Below, piece by piece: positions 1-11,859 of a stretch of DNA of 30,420 nucleotides. Positions within the stretch are counted from its first letter, which is position 1. Every line of letters starts with the position of its first letter. Position numbers and translations under genes: made by a program. This DNA is from Vermamoeba vermiformis (taxonomy: Eukaryota). A model generated the notes under the pieces. That model did no database searches and had not been told where the DNA came from. It was given only the letters and a program-made list of their open reading frames with translations. The DNA is taken from contig JBEWZL010000200.1 of assembly GCA_045837725.1 (NCBI GenBank), forward strand, positions 248,001-278,420. Direction: 5' to 3'.

Positions 1-287
1 ATGTCGTCATATTGTAAATAGTGTAAATACTTTTATTGTTGTTATTCAATGTACAATTCACTTGTTCTTTTCAGGTGAGGACAGTGGTGGCAGCACAAAC
101 ATGTCACCGCTCTTGCGTCGCGACGCCTCAAACTCTCTGACACTCTTGCGCACTGAGTCGTCGATCGAGTACTTCAATTGATGCACTATGTAGCTGAATG
201 CAAATATTGGGCTTGCTCAAATCTAAGTGATGCATCGTAAGTAATTTGAATGTCGAGAAAACTCGTGTTTTTTTACGTACCATTTCC
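1..287 (-). pseudogene. Degenerate duplicate of the AMP deaminase 3' end (last ~7 nt of penultimate exon, last intron, last exon, 3' UTR); direct repeat of ~3073-3449
   Basis: 1-195 aligns to 3073-3267 with few substitutions. It lacks 77 nt (3268-3344, frameshifting) and 9 nt (cacattcgt). Similarity continues through the intron to 'tacgtaccatt'. The copy may extend left of the window. Confidence 0.93.
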
Positions 288-290
288 GGA

Positions 291-1134
291 CTAGAGCTTT
301 TCTTTTAGCTTGTCCAACTTGGCCCTCCACACTTCCGAATAAAAAGCAACATGTTTCTCTTGTTGCGAGTCCGATCGGCTTGAGTCAGCTTCATCAACCT
401 CCATAAACGCATCACAGTTGTCCTTCCCTTCTTCAGGTGATGGGGGACAAGAAAATGCATCGTCGCTTGAATCATCGAGGTCCATCTCTAAATTTTGGTT
501 TGCAGTTTTTCTACTTTGGATGTCAGCAAGTATTTGCGAAATGAGAGAGACAAGAGTATAATCCGTAGTGCCGTCCAGTTGAGGTAATTGATTGAGTGGT
601 GTGTTGAGGACTTGTTTCAGATCGGCTGTGCAAAATAAGCTGAGCTCTTTCAGCTTCGGATCCCCAGAGATTGAAATGGTACTAATGTCTAAAACATCGT
701 TCAGGTAGGCAAAGTTGTCGTAATTTGTCCTCAATCGACGGCTAATCACCGCGGCTCGAGCTTTCTCGGTTTTGACGTGAGTGGGATTACGCGTGCCTCC
801 CCAAATGTACTTTTTTTGGAACTCCTTTGGCGTAAGCCTATTCATGTCGTTCTTAATTTTGTTATATTTTTGGTACTCGGAAGAATCTGCATCTCGCTCG
901 TCCGTTGGAGGGATTTGGATGTCGGCAAATTTGTCTGTCGTTCCGAGCCTAATGACAAATTGCTTGTATTTTTGCTGGCTCATATCCAAATATCTTTGCC
1001 TTGAAGAGTAGCACGTCCTCGATTTATTTATCTTGCTTCCATTAATTTTGAGAACAACTTTTCTTCTTCCTTTTAACAAACCGTTAAACAAATTTAATCA
1101 TGCAATGTTACTTACTGTGCTTTGTGTTATCCAT
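291..1134 (-). CDS. Orphan protein (~265 aa), acidic C-terminal region, 2 exons
   Basis: ATG at 1134 (MDNTKH). A GTAAGT..AAAG intron at 1115-1070 joins in phase to the long ORF 291..1091. No recognisable domain. Confidence 0.65.
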
Positions 1135-1209
1135 CCCGGGTTTGGGTGTCATTTATCGGTCGTGTCACAGATGAATTTTTGACACAAACGAAAGAGCACC
1201 GCACAACAA

Positions 1210-2983
1210 ATGGAAAGTGTAAGTATTTAATTTTAACTTACTAAATAAACAATTTTTTGGTTAAACCTTGTTATCTAGAGTTTTAGTGTCAAGGTATTGT
1301 CCGGTCCGGATATAGATGTCATACAATACTGCCACGACTATCTTGATATTTTGGGCAATTTAAACGATAGAAAAAATTTAATAATTCAAGAGGAACAAGA
1401 GTTCATAAACTCCGAGCAAAAAAGAACTAAATTCAGCGATCCATTCTTGGCTTTCAAGCAAGCCAGTGTTACACTAAAGTGGAATGAAGTTATTGAGCAG
1501 TTCAAGCAGCTTTTAATAAGCACGGAAGAACTTACGGAAACCAAAAGAGCTGCTCAATTACGAGAATATCTTTTCAACAAAGCTGCGAACAACGAACCAA
1601 CTGACGCTAAAATTGTTCTGGATGGATTAGTTGCATTTTATTCCTCAACAAGAGGGAATTTACTAAAAATGCAGGATTATTTTGATAGTCACGCATGCTG
1701 TTATGGTGCTTTGATGTTGATTCCTGGCAACAAAGCAGCCTGCGACTACATTGTAAAGCCAGAACGAGTTGATCAAGTCCTCGGAGGACTCGTGGCACGG
1801 ACAACCTCATTTGCGAAGTGACGACTCCCGAGTAGGCTTGTGCCCATATTGTCTAGAGTCACTGTTAAAGATGCGAATTGGCTCTTACAAAGCATTTATA
1901 TCGAAGATTAGAAACACATTGGCCAACAACAAAAACTCTCCATACGCCAAGGCAGCAGAAGAAAAAGAAAAGAAACTGACAGAGGAATTAAACTATCTAC
2001 AAATTGACATTGAGAGAGTGATTGCTACTAAATTGACGTTTGTATGTCATTTGCACGACATAACGTTCTCACAACACGTTACGTCATTTATTCCTCGATT
2101 TAAATCTAATATCTCCATTCAGGGAAGAATAGAAGAGCCAGAAGAGACAAAAACACATCAAGTTCAACAAGACGATGTCACTGATGATGCAGATCTTGAG
2201 TTCCTACTGCAGCAAGAATTTGCCTTTGATTCGCTAGACAACCAAGACCACTCATTTTTTGACCGCGAAGAGTCGAGCAATTCGGAGCAAAGCAAATCCA
2301 TAGGTACTTAGTCACCTTCGAACGTGTCAGTTTTGATTCTCAATCATTTGCGCAGAAGAAGTCAAGAGCACACCAGCCGCTAAGAAACGAATCTTGGTAA
2401 ATCTTGAACTAGAAGGGGATGATACTCCACCAAAAGGTCGACAGCTGAGATCGCGCAAACTCAAACACGATGATAACGAAGAACTAGCAACGGCACCTAA
2501 TACTAGAAGTCGCACAGCTAATAAGGGTGCCCAAACCAATAGAAATACAGTGAATAACACTAATGTAATGACAGTCAGTATGTAAGGGTATTGATATTGT
2601 GTGCACTATCTGAATATCTTTTTAGAACAAACGAAGGGGCAGAAACGGAAACGGCAGGAAGAAGTGTTTGTAACGAGTAAAAAGCGAAAGCTGCAGCCCG
2701 CGGGTAGCAAAAAAGAAGTACCAAATAATAGCACAAGCGAAGAAATGAATAGCCTTGCTCTTCGTGTAGAAGACACAACTTGCTTGTTCCCGCTGACAAT
2801 ATCGCAAGTGTTCTTGTTCAACGCACTTGCAGTGGCACTTTCTCTGAATTTGCCAAAAACTCGGAAATGCGCGCAATGTATCACGACTCGATGTCTCAGG
2901 TGGAGCTTGCGACATTATCACATCTGAAGGATCTGGTGTCACTGGCGCACACAAAAAAGTGCGAGTCCATGGGTTTGAAATAA
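1210..2983 (+). CDS. Orphan multi-exon gene (Cys/His-containing middle, acidic then basic NLS-like C-terminal half); interrupted by two apparent 1-nt frameshifts (pseudogene or assembly error)
   Basis: ATG at 1210. In-phase GT-AG introns at 1219-1278, 2304-2355 and 2578-2625 link ORFs 1297, 1769, 2394 and 2601. Frame switches are needed at ~1755 and ~2777. Confidence 0.55.
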
Positions 2984-3129
2984 ACGTCTCGTGTTAATTT
3001 CAAGCGCGATTCTCCACCAAGCAGCAAGCGTGGGCGGAGGTCTGTTTGATATTGGCCAATAGTGTATTAATAATGTCGTCATATTGTAAATAGTGTAAAT
3101 ACTTTTATTGTTGTTATTAAATGTACAAT

Positions 3130-6100
3130 TTACTTGTTCTTTTCAGGCGAGGACAGTGGTGGCAGCACAAACATGTCACCGCTCTTGCGTCGCGACGCTT
3201 CAAACTCTCTGACACTCTTGCGCACTGAGTCGTCGATCGAGTACTTCAATTGATGCACTATGTAGCTCAAGTCGATGTGATCGAAGGTCTTCAGTCCATC
3301 AAAGATTGCTTTCATTTCTTCCAACAATGTTTGGTGTCTATATTGAATGCGAATATTGGGCACATTCGTCTTGCTCAAATCTGATGGTGCAATTCGTAAG
3401 TAATGTGAATGTCGAGAAACTCGTTTCTCTTTAATTACGTACCATTGCCACCGATGCCAGGCAAATAATAGTTAGCGCCGAGCCAATTCATTTTCAAGCT
3501 CTGAATAGAGATTAGATGATATGCATAATAATTGTACATCTTACGTGTTCAAAGCCGGATTGCAGCACACTGTTGCGTCCTACTTCGCACAGATCTGCTG
3601 AACTCATCTTCCACACTTGTGCGGCAATGGCGTACTCTTCGATCAAGGGCTCGCGTGTGTAATGGAACTGCAGCGGATCATCTGCATTGCTATGGTTAAT
3701 GACTTGTCTCGCGTGTCAAGTGTCAAACACTGACCTGTTGAGAGTGACACATTGAGACCACGAGCGAAGAATTGCGGGAATGGATTCTTGGAATAATTGA
3801 GGAACAGCGAGTTGTTGCTGAGAGGACTCATTGCAATGCCTATTTGACACAAATAGAACCTAGGCACTAGTTAATATCACTCGAGTAATACAGTAATTAT
3901 ATGGTGCTACTCACAAGTACTGCAGCACGGGTGTCTTGCGCAGATTGATGCCGTGATTGATGCCATCAGCCAACAAGAACGCAGCGGCCAAATGATCTAA
4001 CTCGCCTGCCTCGCCACTGTGCGGTCTGAACTTGAAGGTTGCTAAATTAGGAAGTTAAGGAGAACGACATGGAGTGAAGGATATGCAGTGCTAGAGCGGT
4101 CATCAAGGATACAAAAACCACGTGCACGACGCAGCTGATTGAGCACCGTGAGATTCGAATAGAGATAATACAAGTAGTAGCTGTACGGTGGGTTGTGCGG
4201 CAAGTTCCACTCTTGTGGTGGCGGATACTTGCGCATCAAACGGTGCTCCAGTTTGCTCTCATCGTCCACACAGTCCACGCCCACTAAATAGCGCAAGAAG
4301 CGGTGCAGTTTGGGGTCTTTGGAGGGGTCAACTGTGACTTCGAACAGCGGCTCGAAAATATCTGCAAAGCTATGTTAGACACCTCACACAAGCAATCACG
4401 TGACGTACTTGACACCATGTCCTGCATGGTCTCGAAGTTGGGAATGCGATTCTTCTTGAATTCTTCGTACAGGCGCGGCACTTGCACCAACCAGCGCACG
4501 TGATCGGAGAACAAGTTGTTGTCGCAGACCCACGCCGCCAGTTTGGACCACTCATCGCGCTTGCGGCCATAAATCGAGACACGGTACTCAGCGAGGATGT
4601 ACTTGCTGTCCTTGAGCTCGTCCATCAATTCGTAGGTCATCTCCGCGAGATACCGGCCTTTGATGAGATTGTCGGTCTTGAGAAATATCTCGCGCAATCT
4701 CGATTCACCGATGGGATTGTATTTGAGATTGAACTTGTCGAAGCGGTGAAAGATGCGATTGTCTGCGTGCACGTCCAATCGATCGACGGTCAAATCATAG
4801 GCTGTCAGTCTGATACTTTCAAACACTTCTTGCAGCGTCAGGTGCTTGTTGTCGCGGAATATGACCACTTCCTAATTTAGAAATGACACGTGTTAATAAT
4901 GCCTCTAAGACGTGGACAGCACTTACATTGCCCTCGGACTTCAACTTCTTCTTAATGAACTTCAACAAGTGCTTCTGATTCATCGCACTGGACAAGTGAA
5001 TGTGCGTGTCAACTTTGCGAATGTTGTAAAAGTCACGATGCGCAACATTCTAAATGACACGTGTCAAATGATGTATCTTCCAATTACTCGGACTTACCAT
5101 TTGATGCAACTTCTCCTTGTCCTGATTGAGAGTCTTGTGCAGCACAAAACAGCTCTCGAGCAGGGCCAGTCGCTCGTAACAGTACGTCTTGTTGGGCCCT
5201 TCATTGGCCACGCGCAGCAGTGTGTTCAAGTCGCTGTAGTACTCGCGCAACTCGGCCACTTTGGCTTTGAATTGTGGTGCGTCGTTGTTCTCCATGGCTG
5301 CCGAGACTGTTAGCGTATTGACACGTGTCAAAGTGAGAACTGTACGCACCTGATTTTGACGGCCACACTTGTGCCACACCATCGATGAATTTGAACGCGA
5401 ACTGTTGACAGGTTAGCGATTGACACGTGTCAAAGAGCAGTTCTGCACGTACCTCAGAAGGCAACATCTCTTCCCTGGTGATTTCTTGACTGGCCAATAG
5501 CGTGACAGAGTTCGTGGTGTCAGAGGGCAGATCACGTGACTTGTAGTTGTGCGTCATCAGTGTCTCGTAGTCGTCTGTCACGTACTTGTGGCGCAGATTG
5601 ATCGCTGCCACGAGTGAGTTGAGCACTGTCAGCACTTCTTCGCGCTCAATAGGCTCGGCTGTATACGAACAGTACTGTAAGTATATGCGAGCGATAGTAT
5701 GTAATATTGTTGTACGTACTGTCCGGGGTAAGGATCAGCCGACGGAATTCAGGACGATTTAAATTCTGTTCGCGGGGTATGCCTTGAGACAACGACAACG
5801 AGTCTTTGAGTTTGAGCGTTATCTCTTGTTCCTAGCGCACTGGATGTTAGTGGAGTTCTGGTCGTTGAACTCAACTTGTGCCCAATAAAAATTTCGATTC
5901 ATTACAAAATACGCTTTTGAAATTCAATATTTTTTTGGCTGTATTTTGAAACTAATAGGAGAGAAGAAAACATAAATTGTCGTGTGGGGTGCACGGATTG
6001 GGCTCCAAAAAAATAGGTTCAAAGACCAAACATTATTTTTTAAATTACAATACCTTAGCTTGTTGGGCCTGGTAAGCATAAAATTCTTGGGTGTATTCGT

Positions 6101-6179
6101 ACGGATCAAAGTTCGGGTTGCTAAACGCCGACGCGTAGTCAGGCGGTGTAGCCCCTCCATTCGGCGGTGAGTTTTCCAT
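3130..6179 (-). CDS. AMPD: AMP deaminase, ~12 exons
   Basis: Family motifs include [70 protein letters not shown] and [11 protein letters not shown] at 6179 (MENSPPNGG), TAA at 3130. Introns join in phase. Confidence 0.97.
4042..4112 (-). other. U12-type (minor spliceosome) GT-AG intron in AMPD
   Basis: 5' site GTATCCTT, branch TCCTTAAC 10-15 nt before the AG. Removal gives in-frame [16 protein letters not shown]. Confidence 0.88.
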
Positions 6180-6747
6180 ATTATACGGTTGATGCTGTGG
6201 TCACGCTTTGAAAATGTAATTGAAATTGAATTTGCTCGAAGAGACAAAAATCGAACGAATGAAACAGAAATCTCGCAGGAAATTCAGGCGGAGCATGGTG
6301 CCCAGGCAAACGAACGATTAAACGACGCACCTGTAGTCGCATGAGGGGTAAAAAAAATGGATATGGGCGAGGTTTCCACCGAGCCAACGCAGGAAGAACT
6401 TATTGGTCGGAGAATCACTCGCCGTGATAATCAGAGTAGCCAGGAAACCACTGCGATGGTACTCCTAGGTCCTTGCACGTGATCAACAAGCGACAACACT
6501 GCTGCTACACAATGCGTTTGATGGCGGGTTAGCGGTGACCAGTTATTAGTGCGACAACTATTGTGGGAATAGAGAGATGCCCTTCAAATGCTGAGCGAAG
6601 GTTATCGCATGGACAACGAAAGGTATCACCAGTTGAACTGTCTTGTCGCAGCGGATCCAGATCTGGTCTCTACCAGGGCTACAGTTCAAGAAAAGTTTTC
6701 AACTCGTTTTTTTTCAGTTGTTATCTCTTTTTATTACAGTGCACAAC

Positions 6748-9629: not shown

Positions 9630-11859
9630 CTACAGCGGCACACCATCCACGTCGTCGTCGTCATCCTCTGCTGGCACCACTGTCTTGCGCTCAGCACTCG
9701 AAGTGAGTGAGGGAGTGTGACTAGTCTCACCGACGAACACGCCGCGCAATTGATCGAGCAGATCTGGTGGATAGAGCGACCAGTCCAGCCAGATCTTCAA
9801 TACCCGCATTATTGGGTCTTTGAAGTTCTGCGCCATAATTCTGCTCGTGAATGTCTTGTACTTGGCGTGCAGGGCCTCAAAGATCACGGGCAATGTCTCT
9901 TGAAATCTGACACGTGTCGTTAGCTCTGACGCACTACTAGCGTGCTATTGGCGGTACTTACCCAGCACGGAACTGACTGCCGTGTTGTATGCCCGCATTG
10001 CTGTTGTACAAGATGTCTGAGATGAGCCACAGTCGTGCAATGGCGAGTACTGGTGACAGCTCATTGGTCTGCACCAGCATTGACTCGCTCAACACGCGCA
10101 CGAGTTCTGCAGCACTGTCCGCACGTTCAACTGCAAATATCATTGCATCTCTGATCGAGACACGCGACAGATTCAAGTGTTCGAGCAGTGACTTCCATTC
10201 ACTCAAATCACGTGGCAGAAGTGGCTTGCTGCGGAACTTTTTCATGAATGCAGACCAGTCGAATTGGAAGGGCTCAGGCACGGGTGGTGGTACCCACAGC
10301 GGACCTCCAACGAACATGACGAACGGTGTTGTGCGCCACGACTCGAGCGTGTCACCTTGGAGCAGCGAATACACGCGCCATCGATAGTAGAGGTTGTCAT
10401 TGGTGCCGTTCTGAAACAAGAAAGACAGCTTGGGGTGCTGTGAATGACGCTCGACAAGTTGTTGCTGCAGCGATCGTATTAATACTAAGTATATATATAT
10501 CTCACGCGCGGATGTACGCACCTCAAACTGCTGTCCATGCGTCACTACGAGCTGCGCCAATCGATCAGCGGTCTCGCGCTTCGACTGGTCACTCGGAGGC
10601 ACCACAATCAGCTGCGGCGGTGCTTGCACTGCACTCGCTGTGCCTTGTGCCCAAGGAGGAGGTGCTGCAACATCTGCAGGACATTAGTATGATGTGCCTA
10701 TTGTACAATCAATGTACGCACTGAGCGAGGGAGGTGGTGCAAAGTTGTGACTGGGTGCAGACTGGTGTTTGGGTGCACGACCCCAGCCCAGTCGCGGCAC
10801 TTGTCCCATAATCTCTTTGTCGCGCATTGCTTCCATCGCTCGCTCTGCTTCAGCGCGTGTGGCAAATTGAACAAATCCACTGTTGCGCGCCTTCTTCTTC
10901 TCCTCTTCAGTCTTGGGCCACAACACTTTGACACTCACAACTGTGCCGTAGGGACTGAACTCGCGGCGTAGTATCTGTTATATATGGTTGAGGTTCAGGC
11001 AATGCAATCGAACAAGCAGAAATGACCGTACCTCTTCCGTGACCTGCAACGAGAGACTTCCAAGAAAAATATTGGTGCTGGTGGCATCAGGCAGTTCATC
11101 CTCCGTGCTGTGTTCTATTCTGTTGCCCGTAGGACCCTTCGCGAACTTCCTGCGCTCTTTTTCTTCTTCTTGTCTGTTACAAAACTGTTCAGTATTGAGA
11201 GTCAACAACACTGGCATAGTGACGAGCTAACTTTTTCAACTCCTCCATAAAAGCATCAATCGTGCGCTTCTTGCCCGTAATAGGAACATTATCGGTGGTT
11301 GGCTTGGGCACTTCACGCTTAGCTATCTCTGCATCCAGTTTGTACTCGCGATTGTCAACCGCTTGTTGCACGGAGAGACCTTTCTCAGTCTGAACAATTG
11401 TTTCTCCGCGCACGAACATTTTGCCTTTAGAATCACTAGCAGAAAATGATTGCACGAATTCTTTGTACACAGCATCTGCCTCTTCTTGTTCTCTCTAATT
11501 GACAACAGAGGAAAAAAAATATGAATATTCGTCGTAAAATTGAATAACATGAATAATTGCTCCGTGTATCACCAAATACGTGTTGCTCGCGGCTTTTCAA
11601 TATTGTGATTTTTTTGAACTAAGCGAGGGCCGGTGGATTACCTTCTTTTTCTTTTCAGCTTCCTCTTTTTGCTTTTGAAAAGGAGATTTGATTACTTTAC
11701 TAACATTTTTCTTGACCTCATTTATATCAGTGGTCTAAAGGCGGTGAGTGGACTTATACCGAATAACGAGAAGAAAGATCTCCGTACCTTGGATGTGGGC
11801 GGTGCTAACTTATCCTTATCGAGCCCATAGGGCAACCGCCTATTAATATTGTCGTCCAT
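9630..11859 (-). CDS. U2SURP: U2 snRNP-associated SURP motif protein (SR140): RRM + SURP + CID, ~8 exons
   Basis: Motifs include [27 protein letters not shown] ([32 protein letters not shown]), SURP ([13 protein letters not shown]), CID ([13 protein letters not shown]) and terminal DDVDGVPL. Confidence 0.93.

Follow-up and report, generated by a model that had tools for sequence, protein, structure and literature searches.

A duplicated AMP deaminase 3′ end flanks a probably inserted pair of divergent genes in the amoeba Vermamoeba vermiformis

Introduction

In the E. coli icd gene, e14 and phage 21 leave the displaced 3′ end of the gene downstream of the insert. Yeast WHO elements home into FBA1, whose 3′ end they replace, leaving behind fragments of ~400 bp (PMC7282813). 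Allele-specific cleavage of the host gene, greater diversity in its 3′ than in its 5′ part and clusters built by repeated homing characterise these elements. WHO10 inserts of 2.8–6.6 kb in Torulaspora globosa come with a duplicated 3′ end of either BXI1 or E1850, and the genes of WHO elements often become pseudogenes (PMC7282813; bioRxiv 10.64898/2026.08.13.744650). Transposed Arabidopsis genes often carry genic flanking direct repeats that match the empty orthologous site, with a circular product being proposed (PMC2869330), and bacterial restriction–modification genes insert with a long target duplication (PMC2853133).

Here we analyse a locus in Vermamoeba vermiformis (assembly GCA_045837725.1, contig JBEWZL010000200.1), where an earlier note, made from the letters alone, had proposed a prophage-like integration of two orphan genes that restored the gene for AMP deaminase (AMPD). 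The window, meaning the whole stretch of 30,420 nucleotides that was analysed, maps to G000:C200:248001-278420. A literature search that left most subscription journals outside its scope found no report of an element of this kind in Vermamoeba.

Results

The AMPD 3′ end is present on both sides of a two-gene cassette

The host gene was identified by the Pfam AMP_deaminase domain (E 9e-71, large exon). The features of the locus, in window positions, are:

-3 to 287 (G000:C200:247997-248287), minus strand: copy of the AMPD 3′ end, displaced and decayed; it contains 4–7 nt of the penultimate exon, the intron (280-223), the last exon, the stop TGA (60-58) and 3′ UTR
288 to 3068, no strand assigned: complete insert (the cassette), 2,781 bp, found once in G000
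291 to 1134, minus strand: gene 1, ~265 aa; predicted exons 1134-1116 and 1069-291
1135 to 1209, no strand assigned: 75-bp spacer between the predicted start codons, presumably a shared promoter
1210 to 2983, plus strand: gene 2, multi-exon, homologue of the 523-aa protein P0034
3069 to 3449, minus strand: intact AMPD 3′ end, with intron 3442-3381, last coding exon 3380-3130 and 3′ UTR
3450 to 6180, minus strand: the rest of AMPD, with an approximate 5′ end

The 381-bp segment with the last intron, last exon and 3′ UTR of AMPD is repeated at the left edge of the window, as the earlier note had seen, and two copies of it were found in G000. Within the window alone the repeat covers 1-198 against 3073-3270 (97%). 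With the left flank included it reaches -3 and becomes a 202-bp match of -3..198 to 3069-3270 (97.5%), and a second block pairs 195-287 with 3344-3449 (77%). The last intron is kept in both copies (62 nt and 58 nt), which bears out the claim of a DNA-level event. Our recount of the exon substitutions gave the same four as before, three of them silent (GAA/GAG, TCG/TCA and TAA/TGA) and one not (CGC/TGC); to these we add a 9-bp deletion and a frameshifting 77-bp deletion in the displaced exon. With these coding deletions, the displaced copy is unable to encode the end of AMPD. A plain larger segmental duplication, named earlier as an alternative, is excluded by a 60-kb self-comparison, which returned only this repeat at the site.

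The cassette carries two divergent, intron-containing genes

As had been described, the cassette holds two divergent genes, which are arranged head-to-head; both contain introns. Their stops lie 3 nt and 85 nt from the junctions, and no neighbouring genes were carried along. The frame of gene 1 is open, and its stop, 3 nt from the displaced copy, is at an aligned position common to most homologues. Gene 2 matches P0034 in four blocks, with frameshifts at ~1789 and ~2843. The second of these sits within a gap-free contig of read run X1, at a place where one X6 contig shows a 2-nt difference; the first falls outside all displayed read-run records. Judged by its reading frame, gene 2 is now decaying. 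It encodes a conserved Cys/His cluster (C..C..H..H..CxxC).

Neither gene gave anything above the curated cut-offs in Pfam, PHROGs or NCBIfam, a PDB sequence search with both proteins returned no significant match, and the ESM Atlas had no usable match for either. AlphaFold models were of low confidence (pLDDT 39 and 43), the one for gene 2 being mostly helical or disordered. The structure and fold searches on both genes, which the earlier note had suggested, gave nothing significant: they returned generic helical hairpins and non-significant rows, such as topoisomerase I at E ~0.8, and with such models no fold is excluded.

The earlier remark that no integrase or transposase is recognisable agrees with our family searches, which found no nuclease, recombinase or transposase in the cassette genes. 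Pfam gave no match to LAGLIDADG or any other nuclease family among the window frames and the intact homologues, and neither Pfam nor NCBIfam matched a restriction or modification gene family. A tyrosine recombinase domain had no sequence match, the structure models being too poor to exclude a remote fold. No terminal inverted repeat was found (best end-to-end inverted match 8 of 10), and the other traits of terminal-inverted-repeat DNA transposons, namely a short target duplication, a DDE transposase and several copies, were likewise not found. A perfect 12-bp palindrome lies at 3050-3061, 7 nt inside the right junction. A Helitron-like reading of this palindrome together with CTAG at 294-291 was dropped, as there is no Rep/helicase; a Helitron-type insertion would not yield a long duplication. 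KolobokP, as far as the consulted part of its description goes, does not fit the cassette either (PMC9587614).

The cassette indeed lacks the CACGTG signature, as reported earlier; this is uninformative, since 120 of 474 segments of 2.8 kb lack it too, and the CACGTG-free gap spans -4679 to 4119, across host genes. Cassette GC is 0.414 against a mean of 0.411, with 62% of the 474 segments at or below it. We therefore rejected both as marks of foreign DNA, each being ordinary for this genome. Searches of IMG/VR, GTDB contigs and phages found no relatives that would point to a viral or prokaryotic origin. Separately, the motif GTGACACGTGTCA and its variants recur across the host genes of the window, often in introns, and are uneven along the contig.

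The locus resembles described insertions in layout

We compared the locus with the described systems, within the portions of the sources cited above. Like a WHO locus, it consists of an intact host gene, an element and a decaying host 3′ fragment of ~400 bp. WHO elements have a LAGLIDADG/intein-like endonuclease fused to a zinc finger, whereas none was detected in the AMPD cassette. They have one gene and form clusters, whereas the cassette has two divergent genes and forms no cluster in G000. The WHO host gene is FBA1, while here it is that for AMP deaminase, in an amoeba-type host. Unlike in WHO, an intron as well as the 3′ end of a convergent neighbouring gene fall within the duplicated piece. 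The locus thus has the WHO layout and falls outside the WHO family in its endonuclease and its host gene.

It is possible, though in our judgement rather unlikely, that the cassette is selfish, a mobile or homing element with a WHO-like mode of action and an unrecognised enzyme. One of its two products would cut AMPD alleles that lack the cassette, close to the last intron; repair would then bring in the cassette together with a donor 3′ end, the old AMPD end would be pushed downstream, and gene 2 would decay after fixation. The match to WHO in layout and scale (PMC7282813, in the part consulted) speaks for this, as do the frameshifts of gene 2 with its conserved Cys/His cluster, and the failure to find a donor copy of the gene pair in G000. 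The missing nuclease match, the single copy without an element cluster and the lack of detectable fragments of earlier host sites inside the cassette speak against it. Equally doubtful to us is the wider proposal of a new family of selfish two-gene elements of Vermamoeba-type amoebae that would enter host genes close to the 3′ end and rebuild it by means of an enzyme from no known family, a WHO-like homing strategy outside yeasts and without LAGLIDADG.

The Arabidopsis case shares with the AMPD locus the movement of non-transposon genes and a direct repeat that matches the empty site; many Arabidopsis genes have a parent site, whereas no donor was found here and the cargo is a conserved uncharacterised pair (PMC2869330, in part). 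With the restriction–modification class the locus shares an insert of <20 kb, a duplication of >30 bp (~420 bp in some cases) and the lack of a mobility gene; it differs in having eukaryotic intron-containing genes and no detected restriction or methyltransferase gene (PMC2853133, in part). The long-target-duplication architecture, with a repeat that is single at the empty site, is found here for one empty site. In the compared portions of these sources a layout such as that proposed for a eukaryotic prophage analogue does exist, and it had already been described (PMC7282813, PMC2869330). Unlike e14 and phage 21, the cassette has no integrase that we could find, and no att-type core was identified.

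The repeat ends at the stop of a convergent gene, and a relative has an empty site

The repeat boundary sought left of the window was found: the outer end of the repeat falls on the TAA stop of a convergent gene (final base at position 1) that has a SAP domain in its last exon. As the repeat ends at this stop, the displaced copy would also serve as the 3′ end of this SAP gene. We infer that both host genes depend on the duplicated segment for their 3′ ends. The intact copy holds part of the SAP stop region, which argues against the WHO-like homing described above, a single duplication being simpler.

In a metagenome scan with the last AMPD exon as query, 211 pattern matches came down to one locus, L009. 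There, AMPD and the SAP gene stand tail-to-tail with 65 bp between their stops and no insert, and they align to both flanks of G000 at 70–76%. By this alignment, L009 is the empty AMPD site hoped for in a relative, seen once and in a distant one. Since the two copies in G000 are 97.5% alike, against 70–76% to L009, the duplication would be younger than the split, unless conversion reset the copies; a duplication that postdates the split of G000 and L009 is likely.

Could the pair instead be ancestral at the site, having been lost in the L009 lineage by recombination between the repeats, with conversion keeping the copies alike? Conversion would make the similarity of the outer 202 bp exceed that of the intron, as is observed (Fisher P 0.008–0.07, depending on intron counting). 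Such conversion would need to persist over 25–30% nucleotide divergence, and the pair and AMPD are on JGI contigs of different size (indirect evidence), so that we regard this history as very improbable.

The divergence between the copies leans, non-significantly, towards two once-functional alleles

From the silent bias, the earlier note had concluded that both copies were once under selection. This does not hold at significance (P 0.04–0.35 overall). Three silent changes out of four have P 0.04–0.13 if all changes fell on a neutral copy, and 0.14–0.35 once the working copy is also allowed silent changes. Taking the intron as a neutral clock, dS was ~0.06–0.08, intron divergence 0.07–0.11 and dN ~0.008, with P 0.04–0.24 across 12 counting choices. 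The pattern leans towards two once-functional alleles and is non-significant. When polarised by L009, a weak outgroup, the intact copy has two silent changes and the displaced copy one silent and one non-silent, a distribution also expected from plain decay.

The low dN relative to dS speaks for a WHO-like element, the non-significance of the silent bias against it. Of the proposed gene-restoring integration, what stands is an insertion at the DNA level, accompanied by duplication of a host 3′ end; the delivery of a replacement AMPD end by a circle would be conjecture.

Both genes have relatives, and their linkage appears conserved

The two genes, first called orphans, turned out to be lineage-restricted. 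Gene 1 has 11 homologues (54–96% identity), and both genes have relatives of 60–96% identity in three clades. One gene-1 homologue, a complete transcript, bears the name Vermamoeba vermiformis in EukProt. The gene-1 tree has three well-supported clades, and the gene-2 tree is compatible, with weak support. The frames of P0005 (946 bp) and P0024 (1,731 bp) run continuously across the predicted introns of the window, and these records look like spliced transcripts. A profile search of 1.84 billion representatives gave four matches: P0001, two family fragments and one repetitive protein judged spurious. A scan of JGI metagenomes with the gene-1 query yielded no locus.

Contig sizes suggest that the linkage of the pair is conserved: 6 of 19 gene-1 records share their contig size with a gene-2 record, among them all 4 of the records larger than 20 kb. 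JGI records place the pair on contigs of 271,752 and 81,922 bp and an AMPD exon on one of 490,359 bp, although the organism may differ. A compact, linked pair in three clades, apart from AMPD in those records if the organism is the same, would also suit a WHO-like element.

Several homologue records are near 2.8 kb (2779, 2796, 2854 and 2875), which we noticed post hoc; they may be transcript contigs. A diverged gene-1 contig in X6 (L001:2171-2604) has a depth of ~11, against 2–5 for most other X6 pieces, and this excess could reflect more copies in another lineage or the abundance of another organism.

A toxin–antidote or addiction module, in which one product harms cells that lack the partner gene and gene 2 would be the lost toxin, seems to us improbable. 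It would keep the pair linked and favour its retention after a move, and the tight head-to-head linkage, the narrow distribution and the combination of one broken and one intact partner agree with it; the pair would resemble known toxin–antidote pairs. It has, however, no family or fold support, and both proteins are 60–70% conserved across clades, like the host SAP exon.

Reads cover the locus at host depth

The best-matching DNA run, X1, covered 30 of 30 bins, with depths of 508–720 on cassette contigs and 504–597 on host contigs, that is, single-copy; X1 may be the source sample and hence non-independent. X5 contains cassette pieces with 0 differences, X6 near-identical and diverged cassette pieces, and cassette and flanks co-occur in both. 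Among the displayed records none spans a junction by 31 nt in both directions (149 pieces were undisplayed). The RNA run X21 is from a diverged strain (85% likeness), which makes its zero cassette reads uninformative on expression.

An assembly artefact, with two haplotypes or loci joined across the repeat, is unlikely, and we give it very little credence. Small indel differences between the assembly and X1, low-complexity runs elsewhere on C200 and the missing bridging contig are what one might expect of it. Against this, X1 depth is continuous at host level over the 30 bins, the displaced copy has coding deletions and so is not a working allele, and in X5 and X6 the cassette is accompanied by its flanks. 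The low-complexity runs, at G000:C200:164000-165070 and ~9790-9820, are purine-rich, lie between short repeats and look like long-read assembly noise.

The last AMPD intron (3385-3426; L001:4885-4926) shows several indel variants in X1, X5 and X6, and the 1,375 bp upstream form one X1 contig without variants. The indel variants may be alleles or cross-mapping from the displaced copy; as alleles, though some are perhaps cross-mapped, they would fit a WHO-like element.

Comparable scars do not look very common in a small sample of the genome

The further cassette copies that had been envisaged did not appear, as a DNA search and five protein queries found one locus in G000 (such counts are lower bounds). 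A control over 594,082 bases of G000 (~1.4%) gave 46 direct-repeat rows, two of them from the AMPD locus. The eight short high-identity pairs inspected included no clean second scar; they comprised tandem paralogues, a retroelement, a partially duplicated transporter gene and what is probably an artefact. In this small sample, a scar of the AMPD type does not look like the product of a very common process.

Other repeats were noted along the way. A 4.1-kb retroelement (L027; G000:C200:81052-85605) lies between 204-bp direct repeats (99.5%) and has three long overlapping frames, the middle one with RVT_1 (E 5.5e-8) and a weak RNase H, the third with no Pfam match; it is possibly, as a guess, a tyrosine-recombinase-type element. 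Intronless frames of ~410 aa form tandem arrays at G000:C200:47615-52112 and 104071-106538 (L023, L024 and L029). They have no Pfam match above cut-off and an identical stretch at one frame end, and their second group is flanked by paralogues with 3′ 383 bp 96% alike; these frames could be another mobile family. At G000:C260:119444-125403 (L054, L055), a transporter-like gene has been partly duplicated (identity 79% in the 5′ part and 96% across 211 bp that include an intron), and frames with a P-loop motif lie between the duplicate and the intact gene. This arrangement is related to the AMPD scar, though distinct.

Discussion

We read the AMPD locus as a real insertion scar whose architecture is of a known kind, found here in a new lineage and with an uncharacterised conserved pair. 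On balance, and with slightly more conviction than doubt, we favour a one-off insertion of the compact gene pair by host repair, tolerated since both host 3′ ends were duplicated. The 2.8-kb head-to-head pair, likely from another locus or lineage, would have entered once, in an event of host DNA repair or recombination that also duplicated the target. The route may have been a circle integrating via one crossover, or break repair with template switching. With the AMPD and SAP stops ~60 bp apart and tail-to-tail, the two 3′ ends would share one short region, and insertion would therefore be tolerated only if that region was duplicated. AMPD would retain the right copy and the SAP gene the left copy as its 3′ end; gene 1, with its stop 3 nt away, probably also uses the left copy, and the AMPD-coding part of that copy would be free to decay.

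This explanation is supported by the repeat ending at the SAP stop with no further homology in 60 kb, by the empty site in L009, and by the single-copy depth, the one locus in G000 and the absence of a family match. The same outcome has been described in Arabidopsis without a dedicated enzyme, in the portion of that paper used here (PMC2869330). Several observations count against a one-off event. The pair looks like a unit, given its stops near the junctions, the absence of accompanying neighbours and the suggested linkage; no donor was found in G000, and dN between the copies is low relative to dS. The single empty site is from a distant relative, and no displayed record bridges a junction.

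As a one-off scar, the locus would be a clean example of a very compact eukaryotic genome gaining genes between overlapping gene ends with neither gene broken. If the pair is self-mobile, it would represent a homing-type element other than an intron or intein, found outside yeasts, with a novel DNA-cutting or DNA-joining protein.
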